A stretch of DNA of 64,000 bases. It comes from Scenedesmus sp. PABB004 (lineage: Eukaryota). Below the pieces are notes generated by a model. That model saw only the letters and a program-made list of their open reading frames with translations. It was not told the origin of the DNA and did not search any database. Every line of letters begins with the position of its first letter. Position 1 is the first letter of the stretch. Made by a program: the position numbers and the translations under genes. The stretch covers positions 310,001 to 374,000 of the forward strand of contig JABVCE010000008.1 of NCBI GenBank assembly GCA_014905635.1, written 5' to 3'. This document shows positions 28,451 through 63,551 of the stretch, piece by piece.

Positions 28451-28858
28451 CCAAAACTCGCGCTCCCGCGGCGCCGCCGGGCCAAAACCCGGCCCCGCCG
28501 GGCCAAAACCCGGCCCCGCCGGGCCAAAACTCGCGCTCCCGCGGCGCCGCCCGGCCAAAACCCGGCCCCGCCGGGCCAAAACCCGGCCCCGCCGGGCCAA
28601 AACTCGCGCTCCCGCGGCGCCGCCCGGCCAAAACCCGGCCCCGCCCCGCCAAAATTCGCGCTCCCGCGGCGCCGCCGGGCCAAAACCCGGCCCCGCCGGG
28701 CCAAAACCCGGCCCCGCCCCGCCAAAATTCGCGCTCCCGCGGCGCCGCCGGGCCAAAACCCGGCCCCGCCGGGCCAAAACCCGGCCCCGCCCCGCCAAAA
28801 TTCGCGCTCCCGCGGCGCCGCCCGGCCAAACCCCGGCCCCGCCGGGCCAAAACTCGCG
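28451..28858. repeat. Higher-order tandem array of 31-bp (B: ccaaaactcgcgctcccgcggcgccgccggg) and 21-bp (A: ccaaaacccggccccgccggg) units
   Basis: Order read as BAA BAA BA BAA BAA BA B(partial), with minor variants. Confidence 0.95.
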
Positions 28859-28950
28859 ATCCTCCGAAACCTCAACGCGCGCCGCGCAGGCGCGCGGAGC
28901 CGCGGCGGGGCCGCGGCGGCACCGGCCGCGGGTGACGCTGCTGCTGTTGA

Positions 28951-29617: not shown

Positions 29618-30569
29618 TCAGTTCATCCGGCGGATGAGGTTGTTGATCTTCTGCTCGCGGTTGCCGGCCTGACCGCCCTCGACGAAGTGGAGGCGCTTCT
29701 TGTCGAGACCGCCGCGCGCGCTGCTGAGCTTGAAGGGCCACAGGAAGTTGGACGCCTCCTTGAACGCGGGGCCCACGGTGAAGATCTCGTGGATGAGGTC
29801 CTCCACGCACAGGATGTTCTTGGCGCCCAGCACCTGCGCGCGACGGCGCGGCGCGCCGCGCAGCACGGTCAGGCGCCCGCGCCGCGCCGCGCCGCGCCGC
29901 CGGCCGCCGCGTCGCGCCGCGCGCCTGCTCGACGATCTTGTTGTCGGTCAGCGGGATGCGGTTGCCCTGCACCTTGCCAAAGCCGCGCTTGTAGATGAGC
30001 TCGCGCACGGTCTTGAGGTTGGGGTAGCCCCACGCGATGTACGGCTCCACGCGCTTCAGCAGGCCCAGCGTGGCCTTGGTGATCTGTGCGCGGACGACGC
30101 GCACGCAGCGGCGGACGGCGCGCGTGAGCGCGGCGCGGCGCGCGCGCGGGCGCGAACGGACGGCGGGCACACCGGCGGCGCGGCCGGCGCGTCGCTGGCT
30201 GCTGGCTGCTGGCGGCGGCGCGCGCTGCTGCCGTGCTGGCGGAGCTGCCGCCGCCCGCCGCCTGGCTGCAGCCCGCCGCAGCCCGCCGCACTGCCGTCTG
30301 CGCTGCCGCCAGCGCTGCTCGTGCTGTGCGCGCTCGTGCGCTGCGAGACCGCCGCGCGAGCGCCGCGCACCCGCACAAAGACGCCGTTGTTGATCTGGCG
30401 CAGGCGCAGCAGCTGCAGGATCTTCTTGGTCTGCGGGCGCGCGGCGGCGGCGGCGGCGGCGAGATGCGTCGGCGCCGCGCGCTGCGCGCCCCGGGGCACG
30501 CCCTGCGCGGGACGCGGGACGCGGGCCCGCCGCCGCCCCGCCTGCCGCGGCGGCGCTCGTCGCGGTGCC

Positions 30570-30632
<63 letters not shown>

Positions 30633-31551
30633 GGCTGCTGCTGTGGCTGCTGCTGTGGCTGCTGCTGTGGCTGCTGCTGCGTGTGGCTGCTCAGGCCGCT
30701 GCCGTCGCCGCGCCCGCCGCCGCGCCGCTGCCGGCCGCTGCTGCTGCTGCCGCCTTCGCTGCTGCTGCCGCTGCGGCCGTCGCCACGGGCGCTGCCCGCC
30801 CGCCCGCCCGCGCCGCCCTTTTCCGCGCCGCTGCACGGTGCGGCCCCGCGCGCGCGCTGTGCTCTCTGGGCCGCTGCTCGCCGCCGCGCGCGCGCGCGCC
30901 GCCGCTGCGCGCCTTGGGGTGGATCTTGTTCAGGCCGCGGATGCGGACCACGAAGGCCAGCTTGGCCTCCGGCTCCACATAGAAGCCGCCCTTGACCTTG
31001 GCCTCGCGCCGGAGGCGGATGGTGTCCTTCTCCTGCGGGGGCAGCAGCAGACGGCCGCCTCGGCATCGCCCCGCCGCGCCCGCCGGCGCCCGGCGCCTGG
31101 CCGCGCGGGCGCGCGGTCCCGGTCGCCGGTCGGGCCCGCGGACCCGCCGCGCTGCCGGGCGCGGGCCGGCGGGCGCCAGGCGCGCCCCGGCGGGGTGGCT
31201 GCTGCCATGTCGGGCCCGCCCTGGGCCGCTGGCGACTCCCCGCGGGCCGGAACGCCGCCCGGACGCGGGGACCGGCCCCGGCAGGCCGCCTCGGGGGCGT
31301 GCCCGCGCGGGGGCGCCCCGGGGCGCCCGGGGGGCGGCCCATCGCGCGGCGGGCTGCTGCCCCGCCGATCCCGGCCGCCGGCGCACCTGCTGCCTGTACT
31401 CCTTCACATACTGCTCCGCGCGCTTGAAAATCTCGCGCCGCGACTCGCGGGCGGCCTTGCGCTGCTCGAGCGCCGCGGCCTGGCGCTTGGCCGCCCAGGC
31501 CTCGTCGCGGGCCCGCTTCTTCAGCAGCAGCTCTGGCACCGGGGCGCTCAT
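29618..31551 (-). CDS. RPL7: 60S ribosomal protein L7 (uL30); 5 exons
   Basis: [113 protein letters not shown]. Confidence 0.97.
30571..30680 (-). repeat. (CAG)n / (CAGCAGCAGCCA)n microsatellite in an RPL7 intron
   Basis: gctgctgct run visible on the plus strand. Confidence 0.95.
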
Positions 31552-33070: not shown

Positions 33071-34310
33071 ATGAGCGCTGGCACCCCCGGGCCGCCGGAG
33101 GCGGCGGCCCCAGGCCTGCCGGAGGCGCCGGTGTTCCGGCCCAGCGCCGAGGAGTTTGCAGACCCGCTGCGCTACCTGGCGGCCATCCGCGCCGCGGCGG
33201 AGCCGTATGGCCTCGCCAAGATCGTCCCGCCGCCGGGCTGGAGCCCGCCGCTGGCCGTGGACCGGGGCGCCTTCCGCTTCGCGAGCCGCGTGCAGGCGGT
33301 GCACGAGCTCCAGGAGCGCGTCGCCCTGCCCGCGCGCACCGCGTTCCTGGCCGACCTCGCCGACTGCCTCGCCGCCGAGGGCCGGCCCTTTCGCAAGGCG
33401 CCCATGCTCGGCAGCCGCGAGGTGGACCTGTGGAAGCTCTGGAAGGTGGTGAGCCGCCGCGGCGGCTGCGCGGCCGTGACCGAGGACCGGCGCTGGAAGG
33501 ACGTCGTGCGCATCCTGCAGGCGCGGCGGCGCGCGCGCACGGGCACAGCTCCGGCGAGGGGCGGGGCGGCCCCTTGTGCTCGCACGCGGGGCGCGCCGCG
33601 GCGGCAGCGCGTGCCCGCGCCGCGCGGGGCCCGCGCACGCGCGCGCGCGCGCGCGCGCGCTCCGCCGGCACCCCCTGAGCTGGCCGCCCCGCGCGCGCGC
33701 CCGCCCTCCGCAGCTGCCAAACAGCCTCAACGCGCCGCACGCGCTGCGCCAGCTGTACCAGAAGCACCTGCTGCCGTACGAGGACCAAGCGGCGGAGCGC
33801 GCGCACCGCGACGGCGGCGCGCCGCCGAGCGCCAGCCTGCGGCCGGCGCGCGCATCGCCGGCGGCGCCAGAGCCCGGCGCGGAGGCCGCGACGCAGGAGG
33901 GCGCGGCGGGGGCGGCGACGCGGCCGAGGCCGACGGCGACGGCGGCGCGGACGAGGCGGACGACGACGAGCCGCCCGCGCCGTCGCCGGCGCCGCGGCCG
34001 CGCGCGCGGCCGCCCAAGGCCAAGCCCAAGCGCGCGCGCAGCGCCGAGGACGACGGCAGCGACGAGCAGGGCGCCGCGCCACGGCCGCGCAAGCGCGCCA
34101 AGAAGAAGAAGCCCAAGGCACGGCGCGCAGGGCGCGGCGGCGGCGCAGCGGCGAAGGGGGCGCCAGCCGCGGGGCGGGCGAGCCCACCGCGCGCGCCGCG
34201 TCGCACCGCGCCCACTGCGCGCCGCGCCCGCGCCGCCGCAGGCGGAGCGCGGCAGCGCGGAGCCTGGCGAGCGCGCCCGCGGCAAGAAGCCGGCGCCGGC
34301 GCCGGCCGGC

Positions 34311-34347
<37 letters not shown>

Positions 34348-37300
34348 GCGCGGCGCCGCCGGCGCCGCCCGCGCCGGGCGGCGGCGGCGGCGACGAGGGC
34401 GGCCCGCGCGTGCCGACCAACATCGACGTCCTGCTGTGCGAGCTCTGCAGCGGCGGGCACCGCGAGGAGCAGATCCTGCTCTGTGACGGCTGCGACAAGG
34501 GGTTCCACATGTTTTGCCTCAACCCGCCCCTCGAGCGCGTGCCGCCGGGCGAGTGGCTCTGCCCCTTCTGCCGCGCGCGCTCGGGCGACCAGGCGATGCG
34601 CCCCGGCGCCGACATGAGCTGGGCGGAGTTTGAGCGCGTCGCCGCCGCGGCGCGGCGAGCGCACTGGGGCAGCGAGGCGCGCGCGCGCAAGGTGGGTGTG
34701 CTGCCGCGCGCCGCGCGCCGCGCCGCGCGCCGCGCCATACCCGCGCCGTCGCCGCGCCGCGCTGCGCGCGCGCTGCCGCCCTGGGCCCACGCTGCCGCCG
34801 CCGCCGCCCGCGCCGTCGCCGGCGCGAGCAGGCCACGCCCGCCGAGGTGGAGCGCGAGTACTGGCGGCTGGTGGAGGATGGCGAGGAGCCGGTGGAGGTC
34901 ATCTGCGCACCCGAGCTCGACACGGGCGCGCTCGGGAGCGGCTTCCCCATCGGCAACGCGCTCCTGCTCGCGCGCGGCGTGCGCCCGGCGGGGCACGGCC
35001 GGCGCGGGCACCCTGGCGCGCCGCGCCCGCGCAGCAGGGCGCGCGCCGGCGGCGGCGAGGGCGGCGGCCGCGCCGCCAAGCGCAGCGGCGGCGGCGGCGG
35101 CGGCGGCGGCGCCAGCAAGCCCGGCACGCCGGCGCCAAGCGTCAAGCGCGAGGCGTCGGCGGCGGCCGACGACGGCGGTGCGAGCGACGGCGGCGCGCCC
35201 GGCTCGTCGCGCAAGGGCGGCCGCAGCCGCAGCGGCCGGCCCACGGGGCGCCGCTCGCCGGCCGCCCCGGGCGTGTCGACGGGTGCGGAGGACGACGACG
35301 AGGACGGGGACGGGGACAAGGAGGAGCAGGAGGCGTCGGAGGAGCAGGAGGAGGAGCAGGCCGAGGCCGAGGCCACGCAGGAGGCGCCGGACCAGCCGCC
35401 GACGAGCGGCGCGGCGGGCGGCGGCTCGGGCGCCGTCAAGCGGGAGCCGGGCGTGACGGTGAAGGCGGAGGCCGAGCCCGAGCCCGGCGACGGGGGGCCG
35501 GCGGCCGCGGCGGATGCGGCGCCCGCCGGCAGCCCCAGCAGCGACGACGAGGCGCCCGGCACGCCCAAGGCCGCGCGCGCGCCCGCGACCGAGGCGGCCA
35601 CCCCATCGCGGGCGGGCGGCGGCATGCCGCGCGCGTCGGCGCCGCCGGCCACGCCGCAGGCGGCCACGACGCCGGCCCGCGCCGACGCGGCCGCGGGGGC
35701 GGCGGCGCTGGCCGCGTACGCCGCCCACCCCTGGAATCTGAATAACGTGCCCCTGCAGGGCGGCGACTATGCGAGCAGCATCGCGCTGCTGCAGCGCCCC
35801 GCGCCGCGGCCGACCTCGGCGCGCCCGCGCAGCGCCGCCGCCGCGGGCGGCGCGGGCGGCGCGGGCGGCGCGGCCGTCGCGGCCGCGGGCAGCGGGGGCG
35901 GCGCGGCCGAGGGCGGCGCGGCCCCTGGCGCCGGCGCCGCGGCCGCGCCCGACGGCGCGCCGCCCGGCCCGTCGGGCCTCGTCGTGCCGCGGCTGAGCCT
36001 GGGCAGCATGTTCAGCACCACCTGCTGGGGCAGCTCGCACCACCTGCTGCACGGCCTGCACTATGCGCACGCCGGCGAGCCGCGCCGCTGGTACGGCGTC
36101 CCCTCGCGCGAGGCGCAGCGCTACGAGGTGAGCGAACGGCGCGGGCGCGCCAGGGCCACGGGGGCAGACCAGGGCGGCCGCGGCGGGGCGGCCCGCGCGC
36201 TCGCGCTGCAGCGCCCCACGCGCGCGCCGCGCCGCCGCCGCGCAGGCCGCGGTGCGCGCGCTGCTGCCGGGCCAGCTGGAGGCGCAGCCGGAGCTGCTGG
36301 ACCAGCTGGGCACGATGCTGTCGCCGCGCGCGCTGTCGCGCGCCGGCGTGGCCGTGTACGGCGTGCTGCAGGAGGCGGGCACGTTTGTGGTCACCTTTCC
36401 CGCCGCAGTGACGGCGAGCATCTGCACCGGCTTCAGCGCGCTCGAGAGCGTGCCCGTCGCGCCGCCGGACTGGTGGGACTGGTCCGAGGTCGTCGCGACG
36501 CGGCTGCGCACGACGCGGCGTCTGCCGGTGCGTGCGCGCGCGCGCTCGCGCGGGGCGCGCTGCGGCGTGGCGCCCGTGGCTCACGCGCCCGCCGCCCGCG
36601 CGCAGGCGTTCAGCCAGGACTGGCTGCTGCTGGCCAATGCGGCCAGCCCGGCCCTGAGCCGGCCCGTGGCGGAGCACCTGCTGCCGCAGCTGCTGCGCCT
36701 CGCGCGGCGCGAGGAGCTGGTGCGGCTGCAGCTGTGGAGCGCAGGTGCGCGCGCGGCGGCTGCAGCTGCACCGGCTGGCATCGCCGTGGCCTGCCGGGCC
36801 ACGCGCGGCGCCGGCGTGAAGCACCGCCGCCGCCGCCATGCCGCCCGTGCGCGCACGCGCGCTCCCGCAGGCGTGCACCGCAGCCGCGCGCTCACCACGC
36901 CGCGCGGGCTGGCGCCCGGCGACACGGCGGACGCCGAGTGCGCGGTGTGCCGCGCGCAGCTGCACATGCTTGCGCTGGAGTGCGACTGCTGCCCCGGGCG
37001 CGTCGTGTGCCCGCACCACGCGGCCGCGCTGTGCGCGTGCGGGCCGCGGGGCTGGCGCCTGCTGTATCGGCTCTCGCTGGCGCAGCTGGCGGATCGCCTG
37101 GCCGACGCGGCGCAGCGCGTGGGCATGGTGCGCGGCGGCGCGCGCGGCAGCCGGGGTTTCGCACCGCGGCGGCGGCGCAGACGGCGGCGTGGCGGCGGCG
37201 GCAGCAGAGTGGCGCGCGCTGACGGCCGCCGCCGCACCGCACGCTGGCGCTGCGCCCGCCGCAGAGCGTGCAGCAGCTGGAGGCGGCCGAGGCGGCCGAG

Positions 37301-39391
37301 CTGGCGGCGACGGCCGATGCCAACGCGCGCCAAGCACTGGCGTCGCTGCACGAGGCCTTGGCCGAAGAGGACGACAGCGCCGACGCAGTGTGCGACGGCA
37401 GCGACGGCGCGGCGCGCCTGCCATCGCGGAGCCCGGGGCCCGGCGACGGCGGAGGCAGCGGCGCGCCTGGGGCGCTCGGCGCCGCGCCCGAGGACGACGA
37501 GCAGCGGCTGCCCAACGGCGCGCTCGCGGTGCTGCAGGCGGCCGCGCCCAACTTTGAGCAGCTGCAGCAGCAGCCGCGCCAGCCCGCGGCAGGGGCCTCG
37601 GACCAGGCTCCCGCCACGCAGTCGCCGCCGCAGCAGCCGTGCGCCGCGCCGCAGGCGGGCTCGCGGCGCCAGCGCCCGCCCGCCCCCAGCCGGGCGGAGC
37701 TGGAGGCGCAGCACCGGCGCGAGCAGCAGCAGCTGCTCGAGGGCGCGGGGCTGCTGCTGGAGCTGGAGCGGCAGGGCCAGCCCGAGCCGCCGCCGGAGCA
37801 GCCGGCGGCCGGCGGCAGCCCCGAGCCCGCGGCCGTGCCGCCCGAGCTGGCGGACGCGCCGGAGCAGACGCACGCAGGGGGCCTGCGCGGCGCGCGGGCG
37901 GCGGCGGCCGGCGTGCTGCTGGCCATCGCCGACGCCGCGGCGGCGGGGCTGGAGGCGGAGCCCTGCCCGTTTGTGCTGAGCGACTCGGACGCCGACAGCG
38001 GCAGCGACGACGACGTCGACGACGACGCGCTGCTGCACAGCACCAGCGACGAGGCAGCGGACGAGGAGACCGAAGGCGAGGAGGAGGACGACGGCAGGGC
38101 GCAGCCGGGCGCCTGCGGCGAGGCCGGCAGCGCGGGGCGGCCCGCGCCCGCGAGCACCGGCAGCGGCGCGCGTGGCGGCGCCGGCGCCGGCGCCGGCGCC
38201 GGCAGCGGCAGCGGCAGCGGCAGCGGCAGCGACAGCGAGCCCGCCGGCGCCAGCGACGACAGCGACTACGAGTCGGGCGCCGCGCCGCGCTGCGCCGGCG
38301 GCGAGCGCAGCCGGCCGCCCAGCCAGCGGGCGCGCGGCGCGGCGGGGCCGTCAGCGGGGCGGCGCGGCAGCATCGCTGGCGAGGGCAAGCCCTCCCGGCG
38401 CAAGGCGTCGCGCCGCGCCGCCGCCAGCCCGCCGCCCGGCGGCGAGGGCGCCGGCGCCGGCGCCGACGCTGGCGATGCCGACGCGCCGCCAGCGCGCCGC
38501 CGCCGCAGCATCGTGCTGAGCGCCGCGGAGCGGCGCGCGCGGCGCGCGGCGCGGCGCGCCGCGCGCCCCGGCCGGGACCGCGCGGCGCGGCTCGCGGCGT
38601 GGGACGCCAGCTTTGCGCACGAGCTGTTTCGCCAGCGCCGCCGCCTCGCGCGCAAGCGCGCCGCGTGGTGCCGCGCCGTCGAGGGGCTGCTGTCCGAAGG
38701 CTGGGCGTCGCCGCAGGAGGTGGAGGCGCTGCTGCGCAAGGGCCAGCAGTACGCGTGGGGCGGGCCCGACTGCGACGCCGCGCGGCGCCTGCAGCAGCGC
38801 CTGCTCGACGCGCAGCAGTGGGCGGCGCAGGTGGAGCGCGCCGCGGCGGGGCGGCCGCGGCCGGCGTTTGAGGCCGTCGCGGGCCTGCTGGCCGCGCAGC
38901 CGCCGCCCATCGCGGCGCCGGGCCTGGAGGAGCTGCGCGAGGAGGCCGCCGCCGCGACCGAGTGGCGCGTGCGCTACTACACAGCAATCGGCCTGCCCGC
39001 GGCGGCGGCGGCCGCGGCGGCCGCGCTGCCGGGCGCGGGCGACGGCGCGGCCGGCACCGGCGGCGCGGCCGGCGCGGGCGGCGCGGCGAACGAGGCGGCG
39101 GCGGCGGCCGCGGCGGCCGAGGCCAAGGCGTCCGCGCAGCTCGCGGCGTCGGAGGCGGCGCTCGCACGGACCTTCCCCAGCGCTGCCGCGGCCGACCGGC
39201 GCGGGCGGCGCGCCGGCGGCGCCGGCGCCAGCACCGGCGCCGGCGGCGCGACGCTGGCCGAGCTCATGGCAGCGGCGACGGCCAAGCCGCTCTCGGCCGC
39301 CGCGGCGGCTGCGGCGTCGGCGTCGGCGGCCGCGTTTGCGGGCAAGTCGTTCGACCTCAAGGCCCTCAAGCGCCTGGCGGCCGAGGTGCGC

Positions 39392-39436
<45 letters not shown>

Positions 39437-39680
39437 CATGCGTGCGGGCGGGCGGGCGGGGCGGGCGGGCGGGCGGGCGGGCGGGCGGGCGGGCGGGCGG
39501 GCGGGCGGCGCGGGCGGGCGGGCGGGCGGGCGGGCGGCGGGGCGGGCGGGCGGGCGGGCGGGCGGGCGGGCGGGCGGGCGGGGCGGGCGGGGCGGGCGGG
39601 CGGCGGGCGGGCGGGCGGGCGGCGCCGGGCGGGCGGGGGGCGGGCGGGCGGGCGGGCGGGCGGGCGGGCGGGCGGCGGGT

Positions 39681-39756
<76 letters not shown>

Positions 39757-41092
39757 GTGCGCGCCGCGCGCCGCCGGCTCGCGCGTCCCTTTGCCAGCCC
39801 GCTCGCGCGCGCCACCCGCGCGCGACTGACTGACCCCCTCCTGCCGCCGTGCGCCCGCGCGCGCCGCCAGGCCGCCGACGTCGCGCTGGAGCTGCCGGAG
39901 CTGCGGCTGCTGCGTGACCGGCTCGAGCAGGGCCGCCAGCTGCAGGCGCGCCTCAGCGCGGCGCTGACGGCAGAGGACGACGACCGCTGTGACATCCCGA
40001 CGCTGCGCGAGCTGCAGGCGCAGGCGGCCAGCTGCGGCCTGGCGCTGGAGGGTGCGCGCGCGCGGGGGTCCCTGCCCGGCCGCGCGCGCGGCCGCGCCGT
40101 GCGCCGCTGCCGCCCGCCGCCGCCGCGCCCACCGCCCGTTGCTGCGGCCGCGCCGCCAGGCCTGGGCGCGCTCGCCGAGACGCTGGCGACCGCGGAGGCG
40201 ATGCAGGCGCGCGCGCGCGCGACGCCATGGCCATGAGCCGCCCGCTCGCCGAGCTCACCGCGGTGCTGGACGACGCCGAGGGCGTGCCCGTGTATGTGCC
40301 CGAGGTGGAGGCCGTGGCGGGGCTGCTGGAGCGCGTGCAGGACTGGCTGCGACGCGCGGAGCACGCGGCACAGCAGGCGCGCACGCGCACGCGTGGGGCA
40401 GGGCCGCGCGGCAGCCAGCGCCGCGACGGCCGGCGAGCGGGCGGGCTGGGCTCACGCCGCCGGGCTCACGCCGCCCGGCCGCGCCCCCTGGCCTGTCGCG
40501 CAGGGTGGCGCACTCAAGTCGATGCGTGAGCTGCTGCACGCGGGCGAGCGCCTGGGCGTGGAGGTGCCGGCGACTGAGGCGCTGCGCGCGCGCATCCGGC
40601 GGCGCGAGTGGGAGGAGAGCTCGCGCCGCGCCCTGGGCAGCAAGACGAGCCTCGGCACCCTGGCCGGTGCGGCGGCGCGCTGGGCGACGGGGAAGGGGAT
40701 CCAGCGGCGCACCGGCCGCTGCTGGCGCGCTGCGCCCGACCCCGTCTGCCCACCTCCCGCCCGCCTGCCCGCCTGCCAACCCGCCAGAATGCCTGGAGGA
40801 GGCGGCGCGCATGGGCGTGGTCGGCAGCCGCCACGCACGCGCGCTCAAGGCGCGCCTGCAGGAGGCGCTGGCCTGGGACCGCCGCGCCGCCGTGCTGCTG
40901 GGCCGCGCCCACGCGGCGGCGGCGGCCAAGATCAGGTCGCTGGCCGAGGCGGGGCTGCTGGAGGGGGAGGATCAGGACGACTGTGTGCCCCTGGTGCCCG
41001 CCTGGGCGGGGCCCGAGGCGCCGGCCGGCGGCGACGGCGGCGCGCCGCCCGCGGACGCCGCCCCCGGCAGCGGCGGCGGCGGCGGCGGCGGC

Positions 41093-41136
<44 letters not shown>

Positions 41137-44070
41137 AAGGGCGGCAAGCCGCGCAGCTCCGCCGCCGCCGGCACGAACGCCGCGCTGGCGGCGCTCGCGG
41201 CCATCAAGGCAGCTGAGGAGGCAAAGGCGGAGGAGGAGGCCGCCGCGGCGGCGGCCGCCGCTGCAGAGGAGGAGGCGAGCGACGCCGGCGAGGCCGGCGG
41301 CGATCAGCCCATGCCTGACGCGGAGCCGGGGGAGGAGCAGCAGCAGGCGCAGGAGCAGCAGCAGCCGGAGGGCGGCGGCGGCGGGCCGGCGGCCGAGCTG
41401 GGCGAGGCTGGCGCCAACCCCGCCGCCGCTGAGGAGGGCGGCGAGGCCGCGGAGGCCGAGCCGGCCCCCGGCACGCTCGTCAGCCTGGACGACCTGGCAG
41501 ACCTGGTCTCCGAGGGCGCCAGCCTCAACGTGCGCCTGGAGCGGCTCTCCGAGGCGACGCGCCTGCAGGTGCGTGCCGCGCCGCAGGGTGCTCGCAACGC
41601 CCGCCGCGCCCGCCCGCCCCCGCCGCCGTCACCGCCGCCGCCGCGGCTGCGCCGGCGCAGACGAGCTGCACCTCGTGGCAGGCGCGCGTGGAGGTGCTGC
41701 GGAAGGACATGGCCGCGGCGCAGCTGCCCAGCCCCGACCGCGTGATGGCCCTGCTGCTCAGCGCGGCGGCCACCGGCGCCGAGCTGAGCCACATGGACGA
41801 CCTGCAGGTGCGGCCTGGCGCCATGGCCAGCGCGCGGGCACAGTGCGCGGGCGGGCGCAGTGCGCGGCACGAGCACAAGCGCAGCGGCCGAGCCCCGCCC
41901 GGCGCGGCGCGGCGCGCGCCACACGCGACGCAGGCGGTGCTGCTGGAGGGCCGCGCGTGGCAGACGCAGGCCGAGCAGGTCGCGGCGCGCCAGGAGGCGG
42001 CGGCCGAGGCCGCGGCCGCGGCGGCGGCCGCCGGCGGCCTTGCGTCCTGCCGCGGCGCGGCGGCCGAGGCCGACGCCAAGAGCTGCATCGCCGAGCTGGA
42101 GGGCGTCATCGGTGCGCGGCGGCGCAGCGGGCGAACCGGTGGCGGCAGGCTGGCTCGCCGCGCGCTGGCCGCGCCGCGCCGCCGCCGCGCCGCCGCCGCC
42201 GCGCGCCGCGCCTCATGCCCCGCCCTCGCCCCATGCCCCGCCCTCGCCCCGCGCGCGCGCGCCGCAGCCGAGGGCGAGGCCATCGGGCTGGCCTTCCCCG
42301 AGCTCGCCACGCTGCAGGAGCGCGTCGCCGCGCTGCGCTGGCAGCTGCACGTGGCCGCCAAGTTCTCTCTCGTCTTCGACCTCGCCGACGCGGAGGCCGC
42401 CGCGGCGGCAAAGCGGCGCGCGGCGCGGGAGGCGCGGCGCGCCGCCGCCGCGCAGCAGCAGCAGCAGCCGCAGCTGCAGCAGCAGCAGCAGGAGCAGCAG
42501 CCGCCGCCACCGGGCGGCGCGCAGGACGGCGGGGCGGCGCAGCAGCCCGACGCGATGCAGATCGACGGCGCGCAGCCACCGGAGCCGCCCCCCAGCGCCG
42601 CCGAGGCAGCGCCAAGTGAAGGCGGCGCGGCGCCCGAGCCGGCCCCAGCGGACGCCGGCGGCGCGGACAGCGATGCCGACAGCGGCGGAGAGGGCAGCGC
42701 CGGCGGCGCGTTTGACCCCGCCGCCGTCGCCGCGTCGGTGCCGCCGTCCGCCAAGGGCAGCCTGGACGACGCGGCGCAGCTGCTGGAGATGGCCGAGTCG
42801 CTGCCGGTGCCGGCGCCGCTGCGCGACGCGCTCGCGCGTGGCGTCGCTGGCGCGCAGGCGTGGGCCGAGGCCGCGCGCGCGCTGCTGCCCGCGCCGGGCA
42901 GCCTGCCGGCGCGGCGCGGCGTGCCGCTGGAGGAGGCAGTCGCCCTGATCGAACGCGCCAAGGCCATGCCCTTCAGGTGGGCCCGAACCTGCTCCCGGGG
43001 GGTCCAGGCTGGGCCGTCGCTCGGGTCCAGGCGCCCCCGCGCGCCGGGAGGCCCCGCCATGCTAGCGCCGCGCGGCGTGGACCGACCGCTCGCCGCCCGC
43101 CGCGCACGCGCAGGCTCAACGCGGTGCAGGGCCTGCAGGCGCTGCTGGCCGGCCACGCCGCGTGGGAGCACGCCGCGCGCAAGACGCTCGACGCGGTGGC
43201 CGCAGCGGCGGCCGCGGCGGGCGCGGCGCGCGCCGCGCAGCTCGCGGGCGTCGACGCCGAGGCGCCGCCCGGCGGCGAGGCTGCAACGGGGCGCGCGCCG
43301 CTGCGGCCGAGCCTGTACGACCTGCAGCTGCTCTGCGACGCCGCGGTGGCCGACCCGCTGGCGTCGCCGCAGCAGGCGCCGCTGCAGGCGCTCCTCGCGG
43401 ACGTGGCGGCGTGGCGCGAGCGCGGCCGCAGGTGCACGGCGGGGGCGCCCGCGCGCGCGCGTCTGCGCACGCCGCCGCCGCTCGCCCCGCGCGCTCACCC
43501 GCCGCGTGGCGCGCGCGAGCAGGGTCATTGCGCGGCGGGGGTCGTCGCAGCCGCTGGACAAGCTGCTCGACTCGCTGCTGGACCGCCTGGCGTTTGCGGT
43601 CGAGGCGATGCGGCAGGTGTACGCGCAGGAGAAGGCGCCGCTGCCGGAGCGCTACCGCGGGCTGCTGCCACTGCACAAGGCGCGCGGGCGCAGGCGCTGC
43701 AGCACCCGGGCGCGCCCGCGGCGCCGGCGCAGCAGGCTGCGGGCGCGGGGCGCCAGGCCGAGGCGGCGAGCAGCCTGCTGCAGGTCTTTGCTGCCAGCAG
43801 CGGCGCGCCGGCGGCAGCTGAGCCCGGCGCCCGGGGCGACGGCGGCGGCCGCAAGGCGTCCGCCGGCGGCGGCAAGGCGGCCAAGGCCGGCGGCAGCGGC
43901 GGCGGCAGCGGCGGCGGCAGCGGCGGCCGCAAGGCCGGCGGCGGCGGCGGCGCGTTTGGCGCGGGCGGCGCCAAGCCCGGCGGCGACCTCGGCGTGAGCG
44001 CGTCCGGGCGGCAGCGCAAGCGCAAGGCGTACAGCATGTACGGCGAGGAGGCCGAGGCCACGCCGCCCGC

Positions 44071-44139
<69 letters not shown>

Positions 44140-47100
44140 GCGGCGGCGGCGGCGGCGGCGGCGCGGCCGCAGCCGCGGCCGCGTCGGCAGCCGCCGCCGC
44201 GGACGCGGCGGCGTCGGCCGCGCCGGCCTGGGACGGCGACGCCGGCGGCGGCGCCGAGGTGGAGGAGGAGACGGAGGAGGGGCGGGTCTACTGCATGTGC
44301 CTGCACGCGCATGAGGCCGACACCTTCATCAGCTGCGACGGCTGCGGGGACTGGTTCCACATCCGCTGCGCGGGCCTCTCCGCCGCGGCGGCGCGCGCGG
44401 CGCGCGACTGGGCCTGCCCCGTGTGCCTCGCGGCCGGCGGCGACCTGGCGGGCCTCGACGGCGTCGCGGACCGCCTCGCGCGCGTGCGGCGCCCGCTGCT
44501 CGTGAGCGCGCTGCTCGGCCTGCTGGCCGACGCGGCGCAGCTCGGCGTGGAGCTGCCCGAGGAGGCGACCGTCCACAAGGTTCTGGAGGAGTATGGCGCT
44601 TGGATGGTGAGCCGCGCGCGCGCGCGAATGCGGCGCGGCGGCGCGGCGCGCGCTGCCGCGCGGGGCGGGCGGGCCCGGCCTCGGCGCCCAGGGCGCCCAC
44701 CGCCGCCGCGCGCCGCCGCAGGGCGCGCTCGCGGAGCTGCTGCGTGGCCACGAGGCGGCGCTCGCCGCGGCGGCGGCGCTCGAGGCCGGCGGCGCGGCGC
44801 CGCAGGCCGGCGCGGCGCGGCCGCTCGTGCTGTCGGCGGCGGGGCTGCGCGCAATCGTGCGGCAGGCGGCGCTGATTGAGGTGTTCAGGGACGAGGAGGA
44901 CCCGGAGGGGGAGACGGAGGCGGAGGAGGAGGCGGAGGAGGGCCAGCAGCTGCAGCAGCAGCCGCAGCCGCCGCCGCAGGAGCAGCAGGAGCAGCAGGGG
45001 CAGGGGCAGCCGCTGCAGCAGCAGGAGCAGGAGCAGCAGGAGCAGCAGGAGCAGCAGCTGCTGCCGCCAGGGGGGGCGGTTGCGGCGGAGGGCGGCGGCG
45101 ACGGCGACGGCGGGGCCGTGCAGCGCCAGCCGGCCCCGCCTGCCCGGCCGCCGCCCGGCGCCGCCATCGCGGCCGGCGCCGCCGCGCTCGCGGCGGTCCG
45201 CGCAGTGGCCGGGGCGCCGCCAGCCCCCGCGGCGGCCGCGGCGGCGCAGCTCGCCGCGCAGGAGGAGGGGCTGGTGCCGTGGGCGCTGCGGCTGCTGCAG
45301 GGCGACAGCTGGCGCACGCGCGCGGCGCTGGCGCTCGCCCCCGGCGCGCGGTGCGTGGCGGGCGCGCCGCCGCGCGCCCGCCGCGCTGCCGCTTGCCGCC
45401 GCGCCTGCGCGCCCACCGCGCCGCCCGCCGCGCCGCGCGCAGGCCGTCGCTGGAGGACCTCGACGCCGTGCTGCGCGAGGCGGAGGCCGACGGCGCGGCG
45501 CCGCCGGGGCGGCGCGGCGCCGGCGGCCACCCGCCCGACCCGCTGCTGGCGTCAGTCGCGGCCGCGGCGGCGGCCGCGCGCGACTGGGCGACGCGCGCAG
45601 ACGCGCTCGTGGCGCAGCTCAAGGCCCTCAGCCGCGGCCCCTCGCGCCACGGCTGGGCGGCGGGCGCGGGCGCGCGGGCGGCGCGCGGCGGCGCGCGCGC
45701 GGCGCGGCGGCGCGAGCCTGTCGAGACCCGACGTCGCCGCGGCGGTCGCGCAGGCGCGCGCGCACCTGGCCGCCGCCGAGGCGCTGGCCGTCGACGTCGC
45801 CGGCGGCGTCGACGCGCTGTCGGAGCTCGCGCGGCCCTACTGCGTCTGCCAATGCCTCTACGACGAGTCGCGGCCGATGCTGGGCTGCGACTACTGCAGC
45901 GACTGGTTCCACTGGGACTGCGTCGGCCTGCCCCCGCCGCGCGACGACGCGGAGGAGGCCGCGCCGCCCGACTACAGGCGCGGCGGCCGGCGCGCGCGGC
46001 GGGCGCGGCGGCGGGCGCGGGGGCGCAGAGGGCGCTGCTGGGAGAGCGCGCGGCGCTCACGCCCCGCCGCGGCGCCGCCGCCGCGCAGGTGCCCCAACTG
46101 CTGCGTGGACGGGGGCGTGCACTACCCGCACCTCCACAGCATGCCCCAAGACCTCGCGGCCGCGCTGGCGCAGCGCGCCGGGCAGCAGCAGCAGCAGCAC
46201 GGCAGGGCGCGCGGCGGCGGCGGCGGCGCCGCCGCCGCCGCCTCGGCCGCCCCTGAGGAGCGGCCCGCCAAGCAGCAGCGACGCGAGGCCAGCGGCGCCA
46301 GCAGCAGCGCCGCCGAGCACGGCGGCGCGGCGGACGCAGCGGCCGCGGCGGCGGCCGCGGCGGCGTCGCGCGGCGCCGGCGGCGCCGGCGGCGGCAGCAT
46401 CGGTGGGCTGTCGCCCGCGGCTGGCGGGCTGTCGCCCGTGGCCGCCGCCGCGCTGGCGGCGGCCGCCGCCGCGGGCGCGCCGGGGCTGAGCGCGCTGCTG
46501 CTGGCGCACCAGCAGCAGGAGGGGCCCGCGCCCAGCGCGCCCGCTGCGGCGCGGGCGCTGCTGCAGGGCATGTTTGGCGGGCCCAGCGCCGGCGAGGCGG
46601 CGTGCGCGCCGGCGGCCGACACCGGCGGCGGCGCGGGCGCGGCCGCCGACCCCAGCGCGGCGTTCAGGGCCGTCGCTGCGCTGGCCGAGGCCGGCGGCGG
46701 CGGCCTCGGCGGCGTCAGCCTGGCGGGGCTGATCGCCAGCCTGCGGCCGAGCAGCGCCGCGCGGGGGCGGCAGGCCGCCCGCGCGCCCGCCGCCACTGCT
46801 GCGGGGGCGCCGGCGGGGGGCGAGGAGGCTGTGGCAGCTGCGGCGGTGGAATCGCTCGCCGCCGGCGCGCCGGAGCAGCCGGCGCAGGAGGCGGCGCAGG
46901 ACGAGCCGGCGGCCGCGGCCGAGGCGGAGGAGCCGGCGCAGCAGCAGGCGGAGGCTGAGCAGGCGGCTGCGCAGCAGGCTGAGGCTGCGCAGGCGGCTGC
47001 GCAGCAGGCCGAGCCGGAGGAGCCGGCGCTGCCGCAGGCGGAGGAGCCAGAGGAGCCGGCGCTGCAGCAGGCGGAGGCGGAGCAGGCGGCGGCCGCGGCA

Positions 47101-47178
47101 GAGGCGCCGGCAGAGCAGCGGGCGGAGGGCGCGGCCGGGCCCGAGCCAGCCGCGGACGGCGGTGGGGAGCAGCAGTGA
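33071..47178 (+). CDS. KDM5/JARID1-family chromatin protein (JmjN-ARID-PHD-JmjC-C5HC2 zinc finger-PLU1-like-PHD-PHD) with a degenerate catalytic site; about 20 exons; several apparent indel errors
   Basis: APVFRPSAEEFADPLRYL..YGLAKIVPP (JmjN); VDLWKLWKVVSRRGG..LRQLYQKHLLPYE (ARID); CELC..LLCDGCDKGFHMFCLNPP..WLCPFC (PHD); VEREYWRLV, HPWNLNN, GEPRRWYGVP, QEAGTFVVTFP (JmjC); CAVCRAQLH..CDCC..VCPHH..LCAC (C5HC2); two C-terminal PHDs near 44289-44426 and 45838-46103. Confidence 0.9.
39394..39737. repeat. Compound intronic simple repeat (TG)n-(GGGC)n-(TG)n
   Basis: Directly visible; fills most of intron 39386-39870. Confidence 0.95.
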
Positions 47179-47949
47179 GAGGGTTGGCGGCGGTGAGGCG
47201 GGAGGGCTTGGCATTGAAGTTGCTCGGCTGGCTGCGCCACGCCGCGGGGCGGCGGCAGCGTGGCAACACCGCTCGGCTACGAACTTACTCAGCCCCCCGC
47301 CAGCATCACCGCCCGCTTGCCTCGCCGCCCTACGCGAGTGCTGGCTAAAAAACAAACCTCCTGCGCGCGAGCGCCCCCCTGCAGAGACGGCAGCGCCCGC
47401 GCCGAGTGCGGGCTCTCAACCGTAGGCAACTGCGGCCGCGCCGCGTGCAGCGCCCACTGGGGCAGTGCGTCGGCGCGGCGCGGCCTGCGCGCCGGCCGGC
47501 CGCGCGGCAAGGGAGGAGCAGCAGCGCGCCTCGGTCGGGCGTTGAGTGAGTGAGGCCGCCGCCGCTGCCGGCGGCGGCCCTGTGCACAGGCGTCTGCGCG
47601 CGCGCGCGCGCGTGCGCACGGCCCAGCGTTGGAATGCGTTATTCTTCGCGGGCGTGCGTCAAATGCAATCAATGGCAGCGCGCGCGGCATGCGCGCGCGC
47701 TCAGTGCGAACCCCGGCGAGCCGGGCGGCGGGCGGCGCCGCGCCGCGCCGCCGCCGCCGCCGTGGCATTGTCGTTTCCGGCGCCCTCCCCCGTGCGTGTG
47801 CGCGCCGCCCCGTATACCCCTTGGCGCCGCGCCCGCCGGCGCCGTCTCGGCCGCGCGCGCCCGGCGTCAGGGGCGGCGCCCGCGGCGCGGGGCGCGGCGC
47901 CTCGCGGCCCGCGCGCCTCGCGCCCGCGCGCCTCGCGCCCACGCGGCGC

Positions 47950-49249
47950 TCACGCCCAGACGCCGAGCACGCACATGAGCGCCGCGCCGAGCGCGAGCGC
48001 GGCGTACATGCCGCCGCGCAGGCGGCCGCGCACGAGCAGGTCCTCTCGGCTGAACTCCTCGGCGATGAGCTGGAAGAGCGCGATGTAGAGCAGCATGCCG
48101 CCGCTCACGCCGTTGAGCGTGCCTTGGACCGCGCGGCTCGTGACGGAGTCGGGGTCGTAGCTGCTGCTGATGGCGATGCCGATGGCGATGCCCAGCGGCG
48201 TGGTGAGGCTGTACACGACGAGCATCGCGAGCTTCTTGGCCGCGCTGAAGCGCGTGAGCGCGAGCACCGAGCCGAGCGCGAGCGCCTCGAGGCCCTGGTG
48301 CACCGCGAGCGCGACCATGAGCGTCACGACGAGGCGGCGGTCCGACGTAATGACGCCCACGCCGACGCCGATGATGACCGAGTGAAAGATGCTGCGGCGG
48401 AGGGAGAGGAGGGAGGGAGGAGGGAGGGGGCCGGCGGGTGGGCGGGCAGGGGGCGGCGGCGCGGGGCGCGCGGGCGCGGGCGCGGCGCGGCGCGGGCGCG
48501 GCGCGGCGCGGGCGGGCGGGCCGGCGCCGGGTCTCACCAGCCGAGCTCCATGGTGTACGCGGTCACGCACTGCCGCAGGCTGACCATCGACCCCGGGTCG
48601 CCGGCGCCGCTGGACACCCAGCCGCTCGCGTTGAGGCTGCGCAGGCACTGGTGCCCGTGCGCCGCGCCGCCCGCGCCGCCCAGCACCGCGGCCGCGTCCG
48701 CGCTCGGCTCGGCGCCGCGCTCGGCGCCGTCCAGCGCGTCGCCGCCGTCGACGGCGCCCTTGGCCGCCGCCGGCGCGGCCTGCGGGCCGTGGTGGTGCCC
48801 GCCGCCGCAGCGCTTGTGCGCGCCTGCCGGCGCCGCCGCCGCGCCGCCCGCGCCGGCGACGGCGGCGGCGTGGTGGTGCTCAGCGCCGTGCTTGGCGCCG
48901 GCGCCGCCCTGCGGCTGCTGCTGCTGGGCCGCCGCCGCTGCGGCCGCCGCGTCGTCCCGGATCTGCTGCTTGTACCCCGGCGGCGCGAGCCACGCGGCGA
49001 GGCTCGAGTCAAAGATCACGAGGCTCACGATGCCAAAGAGAATGGTGCAGCCGCCGATGGGGAACTCCATCAGCGAGTTGAGCTCGCCCACGGCCTGTCA
49101 GGGAGGGGCGAGGACGGGGAGGAGGGAGGGCGGGGCGGGGGTCGTTGAGTGAGGCGCGCGCGCCTCGCTCCGGCGCCGGCGCCGCCGCTGCCGGTGCCGC
49201 GGCTGCCGCCGAGCAGCGCCGCCGATCTGGCGGCTGCTGCCTGCCGGCG

Positions 49250-49281
<32 letters not shown>

Positions 49282-49852
49282 GCGCCTCGGGGATGATGTG
49301 GACGAGCGCGAGCGCGCAGATGACGCCGCCGCTGAAGGCGCGGAGGACGCGCGAGAAGGTCGAGTCGGGGTTGCGCAGCCGCAGCGTGATCAGGCCCAGC
49401 GCGGTCGCGGCCGCGAAGATCACGAAGATGGACGCAACCCTGCGGACGCGCAGCGGCGGCGTCGGCCGGCGGCGCAGCAGCGGCGGCGACGGCGCGACGG
49501 CGCAGCGGCGTGCGATGCCTGGCGCCCCGCCGAGCGGCGCGAGGCGCAGGTGCGCGCCGATCAGCGGACGACGCGGGGGCAGCGCCGCTTCGACGGCACG
49601 AGCCGGATGGCCGAGCGGCCGCCGGAGGCATGACCTCGCTCCCACCGCGCTGCGCCGGCCGCAAGCGCGCGAGGCCGCCCGGCGGGCGCACCTGAGCATC
49701 AGGGTCTCCTCCCCCGCGTGGCCGGCATCGAGCCCCGGCTGCTCCGCGTGCGCCTGCTGCGCGCCGGCGAGCTCCGCCGGCGCGCCGGCCGCCTCGCGCG
49801 CGCCGTGGCTGTGCCCCGGGCCCAAGAGAACGCGCTCCAGGAGCTCCCTCAT
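47950..49852 (-). CDS. ZIP-family (ZRT/IRT-like) Zn/Fe transporter; 4 exons
   Basis: LRAFSGGVICALALVHIIPE|A, His-containing loop, MELG.IFHSVIIG, ALAVHQGLEALALG, TTPLGIAIG, SGGMLLYIALFQLIAEEF. Confidence 0.94.
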
Positions 49853-50664
49853 TGTTGCGGCCGCGCTCGCGCGCTGCTGGTGCGGGTAGCGCGCGCTGCT
49901 GCCGCACGGGGAGTCCCGCCTGCTGCACGGTGCAGGAGCGACGACGGCGCACGACGACGTCTGCGTCGCGCTCGCCACAACCGAGTGGTGCGGGGCGCGG
50001 CAGGGGACGGCGCGGTATGGCGGCGGTCCTAGCGGCCGTACCGTCGTCCGCCCAGCTCCTGGTGTGTTTTGCCGCCCGCACGGTCGCACGGCGCACGGCT
50101 CTCAGTACGACGCGACGGACGCGCGCTGCCGCTGGCTGCGGCGCTGCCGCGCGCCGTGCTGTGCGCGCGGCCGCCTCGGGAGCGAGTGCACCCAGTTGCC
50201 TCCTGCCGCCACCTCCCCCTCTCAGTTCAAACTCCTCAGACCCGCCTGACTGAAACGCTGGCGGGTGCACAAAGAGACGGCGCGGGAGGCGCAGGCGGCG
50301 GCGCCCCGCGCGCCCGCCCGCCCGCCCGGCCCGCGCGCACTCGCGCTGCTCGCTCGTCCCCTGCGCCCCGGCGGCGCCCTGGCGCCCTCACGCACGCACA
50401 CAGGCGGACGCGCACACACAATCCAAACCCCGCGCAGAGCCCCCGCGCGGCGCGGGGCCCCCTCGCCCTCAGCCGCCTCGCTGCGCTGCGTGCCCGCCGC
50501 GCGACACAGCAGCGCGACACAGCAGGGCCCATGGGGCGCGAAAATCTGTCGTCCCGACGCACGCCTGCAATGCGCAGGCCGGCAGCGCCGCCCGGCGCGC
50601 GCGCGCCGCCGCCGCCGCTCGCCCAGGGAGCCGGGCGCGATCATACACACCGCGCCGCAGCGCC

Positions 50665-51917
50665 TCACGCCGTCGCGGCGACCTGCACCGGCGCGGCCGC
50701 CGCCGCCGGCTCCGCCGCGACCGCGGGGTTGGCCTGCGGCGTGTTCTTCTCCGCCGGCGGCACGAGCTGCCAGAAGCGGCCCTTGGCGGCGGCCCAGTCG
50801 GCGAGCAGCGCCTTGGCCTTGGCGGAGCCGGTCTTGTCCGCGTGCGCGGCCACGAGGCCCTTGAGCTGCGCCTCGCCCGCGGGCGTGATGACGCGCTGGA
50901 TGGCAACGATCTCGGTGTTCACCTGCGCGCGCGTGCGTGCGTGCGTGTGTGTGCGTGTGTGCGTGTGTGCGTGTGTGCGTGTGCGGGGGGGGGGGGGGAC
51001 GCTTGAGGCATGCGCGGTGTGTGGCTGCGCGCGGGGGACAGCTGTACGCGGGGCCGCCGACCCCGCCGCCCACCCCGCGCCCGCCCCCGCGCTGCCCGCG
51101 CCCGCGCGTGCGGTGCTGCCCGCCGCCGCGCGCCTTCTCCGGGAAGTCTCCCTCGGGGTCGTAGAAGTAGCCCAGCCCGCCGGTCATGCCCGCGCCGACG
51201 TTGCGGCCGACGGGGCCGAGCACGACGACCGCGCCGCCGGTCATGTACTCGCAGCAGTGGTCGCCCGCGCCCTCCACGACCGCGTCGGCGCGGCTGTTGC
51301 GCACCGCAAAGCGCTCGCCCGCGCGGCCGTTGACGAAGAGCCGCCCCCGGTCGCGCCGTAGAGGCAGGTGTTGCCGACGAGGCTCGCCTCCTCCGCCGCA
51401 AACGGCGAGGCGGGCGGGGGCACGATCACGATCTCGCCGCCCGCCATGCCCTTGCCGACGTAGTCGTTCGCCTCGCCCGTGAGGCGCACGTTGAGGCCTG
51501 CGCGGGCGCGCGTGCGCGCGCGCGCGAGAGCGCGCGGCCGCGGCGGCGGCGGCGCGTCAGCGCGCGGGGCGCGGGCGCCGCCGCGGGGAGCGACGGCCGC
51601 GCCGCCGCCGCCGCCTGCAGGCGCCGCCTGCAGGCGCCGCCTGCAGGCGCTGCTGCTGCTGCGCCGCCGCGTGGCGGCGCGCACCCGTGGCGAGGAAGAC
51701 GCCGAAGCTCTGCCCGCCGCTGCCGGTGAGGGAGAGGTTGATGGCGCCCTTGAAGCCGGCGTCGCCGTAGGGCTTGGCGATCGCGCCCGCGACGCGGCCG
51801 AGCGCGGAGCGGTCGACGTTGACGATGTCGTACGCCTTGCTCACCGTGCCCTGCGTGTGTGTGGGGTGCGTGTGTGGGGGGTGCGTGTGTGAGAGACGGG
51901 TGAGGGGCGCGCGTGAG

Positions 51918-51973
<56 letters not shown>

Positions 51974-52047
51974 CGTGTGTGAGCGAGCACGTCGTGCGGG
52001 TGAGGAGGAGGCATGTCGTGCGGCGCGCGGGCGCTGAAGGAGCGCGC

Positions 52048-52135
<88 letters not shown>

Positions 52136-53845
52136 GGCCTCGGCCAGCCGCGCGCACCTGGGTGCGGATGGCCTCCTGCACCTCCTTGTCGGCCAGGATG
52201 TCGTCGTCAAGCTGGTGCCCGTTGCTGTGCGTCGCGGCGGCGAGGCGCACGCTGCTGTCGCCCGAGGGGCCGGCGTAGGTGGTGAGGAAGCTCAGGTCCA
52301 GGCCGCCCGTCTTGGCGAGCGGCGCGTCGCGCTGGGCGAGGTAGTCGGCCCGGCCGACGAGCTCGTCCAGGCTGCGCAGGCCGAGCGCGGCGAGGCCCTC
52401 GCGCACCTGCGGGGCGCGGCGCGGCGCGGCCGCGGGCGCGGGGTGGACGGGCGCAGGGTGGGCGCGGGGTGGGCGGCGCGGGTCGCGCGCGGGGCGCAGG
52501 GCCGGCGGCGCGGCGCAGGCGGCGGGCGCGGCACCGCGCGGCGGCGGGGCCTTGCTGGTGGCGGGCAGCTCGCACAGAAGCTGGCCGCTGCCAGCAACGC
52601 CCCGCCGCCGTGCGGCGCCGCGCCCGCCGCCGCCGACGCGGGCGCGACGGGCGCGCCCCAGCGCGCACGCCCCACCCAGCGCGCACGCCCCACCCAGCGC
52701 GCATGCGCCACCCAGCGCGCGCAGCGCGCGCAGCACACAGCGCGCACAGCGCGGCGCCACACCTCCTCTGCCACAAAGTGGAAGAAGTTGACGAGGTCGG
52801 CCGGCGCGCCGGGGAAGCGGGCGCGCAGCTCCTCGCGCTGGCTCGCGACGCCGACGGGGCAGTTGTTGGTGTGGCACACGCGCGCCATGATGCAGCCTGT
52901 GGGCGGCGGCGCGGCGGGGGGCGGCGGTGCGTGCGTGGGTCGCGGGCGCGGGCGCGGGCGCGGCACGCAGCTCACAGCCGCCGGTGCTGCCCCTCTAAAG
53001 CCCAAAACCCACCCGTCGCGATCATGGCCACGGTGCCAAAGCCGTACTCGTCGGCGCCGAGCGCCGCGGCGACGAGGATGTCGCGCCCGCTGCGGAAGCC
53101 GCCGTCGGCGCGCAGCACGACGCGCTCGCGCAGCTCGTTGCGCACGAGCACCTGGTGCGTCTCAGCCACGCCCATCTGTGGCGCGCGGACGCGGGCGCGG
53201 GCAGGGGCGCGCAGCGTGAGCGCGGGCGCAGCGCGAGCGCGCGGGAAAGGGGGCGCGCGCGGGGCGCCGCAGCCGCCGCAGCCGCCGCCGCAGGCGCGGC
53301 GTGCGCGTCACCTCGACGGGCCCGCCCGCGTGCTTGATGCTGCTGATGGGGCTCGCGCCCGTGCCGCCGTCGTGGCCGCTGATCTGGATGACGTCGGCGT
53401 TGGCCTTGGCCACGCCGCTCGCGACGACGCCGATGCCCGCCTCGGCCACGAGCTTCACGCTCACCTTGGCCGCAGGGTTGATCTGCGCGGCGCGGCGCCG
53501 GCACCGCCGTCAGCCGCGCGCCCCTGGCCCTTGGGCCCGAGCCTCGCCCCGCCCCGCCCCGCTCGCGCGCCCCGGCTCGGCCCGGCTCGCGCGGCCAGCG
53601 CGGGGCGGCGGGGCTGCAGCCCCGCCGCCGCCGCCGCCGCGGCGGCGTGTGCGCGCGCGCGTCGCCGCGCAGCGCCCCCCTCCGTGCGGGCGCATGCTGT
53701 GGCGCGCGCCTGGTGGAGGTCGTAGATGAGCTGGGCGAGGTCCTCAATGCTGTAGATGTCGTGGTGCGGCGGCGGCGAGATGAGGGGCACGCCGGGCTTG
53801 CTGCGCCGCAGGTTGGCGATGTACGGCGACACCTTCTTGCCCGGC

Positions 53846-53877
<32 letters not shown>

Positions 53878-57427: not shown

Positions 57428-57467
<40 letters not shown>

Positions 57468-63515: not shown

Positions 63516-63551
<36 letters not shown>

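Follow-up and report, generated by a model that had tools for sequence, protein, structure and literature searches.

We analysed a stretch of 64,000 nucleotides from Scenedesmus sp. PABB004 (contig JABVCE010000008.1, positions 310,001 to 374,000 of the forward strand; "the window", in whose coordinates positions are given below). The genome comprises 40 Mb in 80 contigs, and the guanine-cytosine (GC) content of the window is ~72-84%. The forward strand carries, at 33071..47178, a KDM5/JMJ17-type gene of ~20 exons (start ATG at 33071, stop TGA at 47176-47178), which was delineated using six-frame translation, an exon model and a tblastn search with the orthologue from Tetradesmus. The encoded domains follow the order JmjN-ARID-PHD-JmjC-C5HC2-PLU-1-PHD-PHD, the full KDM5 architecture, and all were detected with Pfam profiles above cut-off except PLU-1, which was recovered in four pieces that each fall below it. 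A first-pass annotation made from the sequence letters alone had read the gene as a KDM5/JARID1-family protein with JmjN, ARID, C5HC2 and three PHD fingers around a dead JmjC domain, and the Pfam matches bear out this family assignment.

JmjN lies at 33128..33229 (PF02375, E-value 1e-15) and ARID at 33335..33785, interrupted by a GC-AG intron at 33521-33713 (PF01388, 9e-15 for the first exon part, the rest being read from the translation and the orthologue). They are followed by PHD1 (34437..34571; PF00628, 9e-14), which by comparison with orthologues is of the KDM5-PHD1 type, without an aromatic cage. The JmjC domain is split into a first half (35972..36127) and a second half that runs into the start of the helical domain (36246..36527), separated by a 118-nucleotide GT-AG intron (36128..36245) whose spliced junction agrees with the Tetradesmus protein. 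Downstream are the C5HC2 zinc finger (36939..37091; PF02928, 3e-12) and the PLU-1 helical repeats, which extend over several exons (38630..42970; PF08429, E-values from 7e-5 to 7e-4 for the four pieces). The PLU-1 region is 54-77% identical to that of Tetradesmus across five segments (tblastn), and the Tetradesmus orthologue itself passes the PLU-1 cut-off (7e-27). PHD2 (44292..44426; PF00628, 8e-9) and PHD3 (45841..46102, interrupted by a GC-AG intron at 45979-46088; PF00628, 2e-7) lie in the last part of the gene.

The JmjC active site

We compared the JmjC domain with the active-site residues given for KDM5B, namely H499, E501 and H587 for the metal and S507, N509, K517, F496 and Y425 for 2-oxoglutarate (PMC5636616). 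The clamping Trp also named there was excluded, as its number misfits the motif. All eight checkable residues are changed. At the places of the metal-binding H-x-E...H triad the protein has G, S and T, encoded by GGC at 36029 (H>G), TCG at 36035 (E>S) and ACG at 36411 (distal H>T). The places of K517, N509, Y425, S507 and F496 are taken by R (CGC at 36083), H (CAC at 36059), C (34904..34906), G (GGC at 36053) and T (36020), respectively. Both JmjC peptides quoted in the first-pass annotation are in frame where it had placed them, and the Fe(II) ligands and 2-oxoglutarate-binding K, N and Y that it had described as replaced (the Tyr being one before the first motif, Y>S at 35996) were all recovered as such.

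Over both motifs the alignment to JMJ14 (5ykn) and KDM5A (5e6h, 5ceh) is gap-free, so the residue register is secure. Each metal-ligand codon differs by at least two bases from any His or Glu codon; single miscalls therefore do not explain the triad, and we rejected sequencing error as the source of the substitutions, in agreement with the earlier argument that several in-frame changes do not arise from indel errors. For scale, 137 of the 148 JmjC-bearing matches in a representative search (150 matches in total, two without JmjC and 11 flagged) keep H-x-E...H. Judged from its residues, the JmjC domain is catalytically dead, and the protein would almost certainly have no demethylase activity.

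The Trp of the conserved P-W-L-Y motif (35990-35992) is Arg in this protein and Lys in Tetradesmus. The same Trp is Arg in Auxenochlorella, in a paralogue on contig C46 of this genome and in four dead fungal-type KDM5 rows; this recurrent change may plug the pocket.

Paralogues, orthologues and descent of the dead state

The genome holds at least four JmjN-JmjC genes, a lower bound from the searches made. The first-pass annotation had raised the question of an active paralogue, and an intact short JMJ14/JMJ703-like one is encoded on the forward strand of contig C20 (~256900-260600). Its product is JmjN-JmjC-C5HC2-like, without ARID, PHD or PLU-1 matches, every tested active-site position is canonical, and the closest solved structures are rice JMJ703 and JMJ14; a 1-nucleotide frame break lies inside its JmjC. 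This gene would likely be the histone H3 lysine 4 (H3K4) demethylase of the genome. A KDM4-like gene on contig C4 has the triad. A second degenerate KDM5-type gene, again short and JmjN-JmjC-C5HC2-like, is found on the forward strand of contig C46 (~1139350-1143200); its protein keeps H-x-D, has lost the distal His (T), Lys (Q) and Asn (S), and is 54% identical to the C20 protein over 69 residues. Two KDM3-like JmjC genes were also seen, one on contig C15 with H-L-D as its first motif and one on contig C21 in which the His seems to be replaced, and SWIRM gave two matches in the genome.

The nearest protein relative comes from Tetradesmus obliquus (WIA16623.1 and isoforms), which is 69% identical to the window protein over 302 core columns. 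Its triad places read G, T and T and it shares K>R, N>H, S>G and Y>S, so that the dead state is conserved at the same sites in the orthologue; its UniRef name, H3K4me3 (trimethylated H3K4) demethylase, is contradicted by its sequence. In tblastn with the Tetradesmus protein the domains are 51-77% identical and the long linkers stay unaligned. The annotated Tetradesmus proteins read through, at 1273-1600 amino acids. Of 1396 candidates in a protein search with a 94-amino-acid exon, one matched; it is a fragment from a related alga that reads through an intron. A look-up of sequencing runs for 34400-37100 listed none, a result that has no bearing on expression. A candidate metagenome relative (L016), the sole pass of 392 pattern matches, was dropped as a chance 16-residue match in DNA of 38% GC.

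Chlorophyte orthologues were gathered from the representative search (with the Tetradesmus N-terminal part) and a profile search, yielding 21 clusters with both motifs visible, the window counted; the profile search was seeded with degenerate sequences, which favours dead ones, and the cluster counts are not frequencies. The triad is lost in 14 clusters (the window, Tetradesmus, Astrephomene, Auxenochlorella, Chlorella desiccata and nine others), with substitutions that differ among lineages. Two clusters, Volvox carteri and V. africanus, keep H-x-E...H and show K>R together with changes at the Y425, Y488 and F496 places, and five are canonical (Ostreobium, two Trebouxia clusters, P0061 and P0088). 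Also canonical are 86 further rows of the profile search, mostly land-plant JMJ17, and the named land-plant matches with a complete JmjC. Among the 11 flagged matches of the representative search we set aside two truncated ones (P0156, P0158), three fungal-like ones with one ligand changed (P0023, P0139, P0147) and three dead fungal-type ones (P0104, P0106, P0107). From the profile search we set aside six flagged land-plant rows that look like gene-model gaps (P0278, P0284, P0290, P0292, P0296, P0297), two algal rows without the first motif (P0196, P0258) and one unplaced row on a long branch (P0295).

A core tree was built from 42 rows with 18 active-site columns masked; neither a plant PKDM7 row nor an Msc1 sequence was included. 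The gene is sister to Tetradesmus (100/100) within a chlorophyte clade (95/91), which joins land-plant JMJ17 weakly (82/68), and in the profile search JMJ17 comes directly after the algal matches. As these placements indicate, the gene is the chlorophyte orthologue of plant JMJ17, the full-length KDM5, with which it shares the clade, the domain order and the PHD3 cage residues. It differs from JMJ17 in having lost eight active-site residues and in its long low-complexity inserts, whereas Arabidopsis JMJ17 is an active H3K4 demethylase whose loss raises H3K4me3 genome-wide (PMC13361950), and land-plant JMJ17 is described as active (10.1101/2025.11.30.691383). In the core tree, the dead rows from fungi (Basidiobolus, Hyaloraphidium) are not part of the green clade. 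KDM5 proteins of full architecture with a dead site were also observed in these early-diverging fungi (P0006, P0104, P0106, P0107).

We then used a JmjC-free tree (15 rows, 973 columns, LG+F+G4), with Tetradesmus standing in for the window protein. Intact Ostreobium groups with Tetradesmus and Volvox (89.6/89), intact Trebouxia with Chlorellales (96.6/97), and intact P0061 falls between dead Auxenochlorella and the other dead Chlorellales (97.4/98). The approximately unbiased (AU) test rejects a single clade of the five dead Chlorellales rows (p=0.018) as well as one of all seven degenerate rows (p=0.0016), and on the latter result we rejected a single origin of the dead state among chlorophytes. 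The JmjC-free tree and the AU rejections therefore point to loss of catalysis more than once; it would have been lost at least twice among the chlorophytes sampled, and probably three times. A regain of catalysis would be unlikely, and hidden paralogy is a conceivable alternative to repeated loss.

What is new here is the repeated loss of KDM5 catalysis in Chlorophyta, for which Volvox may represent an intermediate. We found no paper on a dead algal JMJ17 in the literature searched, which covered subscription journals thinly and left survey supplements aside. A study of the JmjC proteins of the green lineage, reportedly by Huang et al. in 2016, may have recorded these substitutions. The available parts of two family surveys (PMC9029850, PMC2579438) make no mention of a dead algal JMJ17, and KDM5 sites are called conserved in the former.

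Predicted function and alternatives

The concept of a dead KDM5-type protein is already known from Msc1, Ecm5, JARID2 and PKDM7A. Ecm5 of Saccharomyces cerevisiae has a shorter architecture and is likened to the algal protein by description only. It is a JmjC protein that does not belong to the four enzymes with demonstrated demethylase activity in yeast (PMC8329514) and a member of the Rpd3-Snt2 complex (PMC9508808). PKDM7A of Arabidopsis and poplar, a KDM5-type protein of plants, remains expressed despite its mutated cofactor sites (PMC2579438), but it belongs to the short PKDM7 subfamily (JMJ14/15/16/18/19), described in the same paper as JmjN-JmjC-C5HC2 plus FYRN/FYRC without ARID or PHD, and has no PLU-1 either. 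Membership of PKDM7 was rejected for the present gene: ARID and PHDs are there, and no FYR match was found in the 15 segments scanned. Msc1 of Schizosaccharomyces pombe, likewise compared by description only, has the Lid/JARID1 architecture (JmjN, ARID, three PHDs, PLU) with key catalytic residues missing and coexists with another KDM5, Lid2 (PMC2770259). The algal protein has this full architecture with catalytic residues missing and also stands beside an intact paralogue, although Msc1 is fungal and would be of separate origin. Because it shares both the architecture and the catalytic loss, Msc1 is a closer precedent than JARID2 and lowers the novelty of the finding; by analogy, the algal protein may work most like Msc1.

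Both C-terminal PHD fingers carry the Y..M/F..W residues that the first-pass annotation had pointed out. The positions that we take to form an aromatic cage are Y, H, F and W in PHD2, which is DIDO/BPTF-like (best PDB matches BPTF and DIDO), and Y, Y, M and W in PHD3 (best PDB matches PHF2, BPTF and PHF8). PHD3 is identical to PHF2 at all four, and its first Y, M and W recur in most green-lineage orthologues compared, active and dead. Mammalian KDM5 proteins bind unmethylated H3K4 through PHD1, and H3K4me2/3 is preferred by the C-terminal finger of KDM5B (PMC9309374). For the algal PHD1 we infer binding to the unmodified H3 tail. In the protein as a whole, PHD3, aided by PHD2, would quite probably bind promoter H3K4me3, with PHD1 and ARID engaging the unmodified H3 tail and DNA.

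Taken overall, the explanation that we favour, and consider likely, is a non-catalytic H3K4me3 reader and scaffold derived from a JMJ17 orthologue: JmjN, ARID, PHD1, the JmjC frame, C5HC2, PLU-1, PHD2 and PHD3 are kept and conserved while the Fe(II)/2-oxoglutarate site is dismantled. The conserved non-enzymatic chromatin reader or scaffold proposed in the first-pass annotation appears to be the best reading, and the dead JmjC, the conservation of the dead state and the existence of an intact paralogue are supported as well. Such a protein would dock on promoter nucleosomes through PHD3/PHD2, PHD1 and ARID, would retain its dead JmjN-JmjC-C5HC2 core as a structural unit of the scaffold, and would bring in a repressive complex. 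We tentatively suggest a SIN3/RPD3-type deacetylase as the most likely partner, because KDM5 proteins of mammals, flies and fungi (KDM5A, Lid, KdmB, Ecm5) associate with such deacetylases (PMC9309374, PMC9508808); this recruitment, proposed by analogy, is somewhat doubtful. H3K4 demethylation would be left to the short C20 paralogue, which would have freed the JMJ17 orthologue to lose catalysis.

A number of observations weigh against the reader and scaffold proposal or the repeated loss behind it. Active orthologues have the PHD3 cage too, so it is not a gain accompanying inactivation; some Picochlorum-like dead rows are without its second Tyr, and a PHD3 pattern search found none in three dead rows (P0298, P0183, P0189). 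Volvox orthologues retain H-x-E...H, and no Chlamydomonas reinhardtii orthologue was among the sequences retrieved. The core tree places all degenerate rows in one unsupported group (40/0), which leaves the number of losses open; the JmjC-free tree used no mixture model and omitted the window protein, and GC-rich taxa are compositionally biased. Finally, six frame breaks, which the first-pass annotation had not listed for this finding, were located by eye in the gene model, one upstream of JmjC in a G-run of the ARID-PHD1 linker (33900..33915) and the others near 40205, 41095, 43680, 44135 and 45660-45720.

If these breaks were real, the gene would be a pseudogene in this strain, the first of them truncating the product after ARID, and the neighbouring RPL7 gene does read through without a break (by eye). 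All six, however, coincide with or adjoin runs rich in G, GC or GGC, none is in a Pfam domain above cut-off, and the break in the otherwise intact C20 paralogue points to assembly indels in 80% GC DNA. The dead site is moreover shared with Tetradesmus proteins that read through, and the loss of catalysis therefore predates any decay at the level of the strain. A pseudogene is thus quite improbable, and we are confident that the gene is functional and that its breaks are assembly errors. Residual JmjC activity through other ligands such as the new His residues, or activity as another kind of oxygenase, might be suggested by the extra His near the site in the window, by N509>H, which is common to Tetradesmus, and by the triad of Volvox. 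Only N509>H is shared, though: the His at the D502 and Y506 places are D and Y in Tetradesmus, and position 509 is S, D, T or L in other dead chlorophytes. With neither an acidic residue nor a His at any of the three ligand places, and with K, Y, S and F of the cofactor pocket changed too, residual activity would be extremely improbable.

Other possibilities concern the complex in which a dead protein would act. JARID2 combines a dead JmjC with JmjN, ARID and a zinc finger, and has neither PHDs nor PLU-1. The first-pass annotation had taken it as the closest model, which does not hold: it ranks below KDM5 and JMJ14 for both JmjC halves (E-values 2e-6 and 6e-8 for JARID2, 1e-11 and 8e-15 for JMJ14, 3e-10 and 3e-11 for KDM5A), the gene falls in the JMJ17 clade, and we rejected JARID2 membership on the weaker match and on the three PHDs and PLU-1 present here. 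JARID2 is a subunit of Polycomb repressive complex 2 (PRC2), in PRC2.2, with a non-enzymatic role (PMC8788455), and an accessory factor of this type recruiting PRC2 would fit the dead JmjC with JmjN, ARID and C5HC2 and the PRC2 core homologues that exist in chlorophytes. H3K27me3 is nevertheless unconfirmed in Chlamydomonas (same source) and the H3K4me3-type PHD3 points to active promoters, which, together with the poorer match and the differing architecture, makes this role highly unlikely. Following Msc1 in detail, the protein would instead be a subunit for SWR1 H2A.Z exchange, a PHD-type E3 ubiquitin ligase, or both, rather than a deacetylase scaffold. Msc1, which has the same architecture and loss of catalytic residues, was identified in Swr1C alone, and an E3 ligase role has been ascribed to it (PMC2770259). 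Msc1 probably arose separately in fungi, and the PHDs of the algal protein match RING models only weakly (E 0.03-0.4), as PHD fingers ordinarily do, so we regard a strict Msc1 mode as improbable.

In animals and land plants, the catalysis-independent functions of KDM5 are difficult to disentangle from the enzyme, and algae with a whole multi-domain KDM5 minus its active site, beside active relatives, offer a natural test of which parts are important. Lists of chromatin enzymes in algae also need correction, given the mislabelling of the Tetradesmus orthologue in databases. A broader and rather unlikely extension of the reader and scaffold proposal is that, across Chlorophyta, the full-length H3K4me3 eraser was repeatedly turned into an H3K4me3 reader that sits on and shields promoter nucleosomes, after a short paralogue had taken over catalysis; Volvox, with its triad kept and its cofactor pocket altered, would then be an intermediate step. 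Promoter H3K4me3 in Chlamydomonas is stable and mostly does not depend on expression (10.1101/2021.09.19.460975), which such a conversion, if true, could partly account for; the live, half-dead and dead orthologues would then form a natural series for isolating demethylase-independent KDM5 functions.

Introns, repeats and neighbouring genes

By eye, GC-AG introns seem frequent in this region, accounting for 4 of 19 introns in the KDM5 model (33521, 34118, 40377, 45979) and 2 of 4 in RPL7 (29618-31551, reverse strand), which is divergently oriented to the KDM5 gene. The KDM5 intron at 39386-39870 carries a (GT)n-(GGCG)n-(GT)n microsatellite block. Imperfect repeats whose GC-rich units contain T4 runs form an array at 28470-28860 (reverse strand), between RPL7 and the gene for a PHO4 phosphate transporter. 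Neighbours identified with Pfam in 1-31600 and 47900-64000 comprise RPL31, a cytidylyltransferase, a TPT transporter, a WD40 protein, an AP2 protein, a short-chain dehydrogenase, PHO4, RPL7, a ZIP transporter, glutamate synthase, CCB2/4 and a pherophorin; no functional link is apparent between the KDM5 gene and these neighbours in the window.

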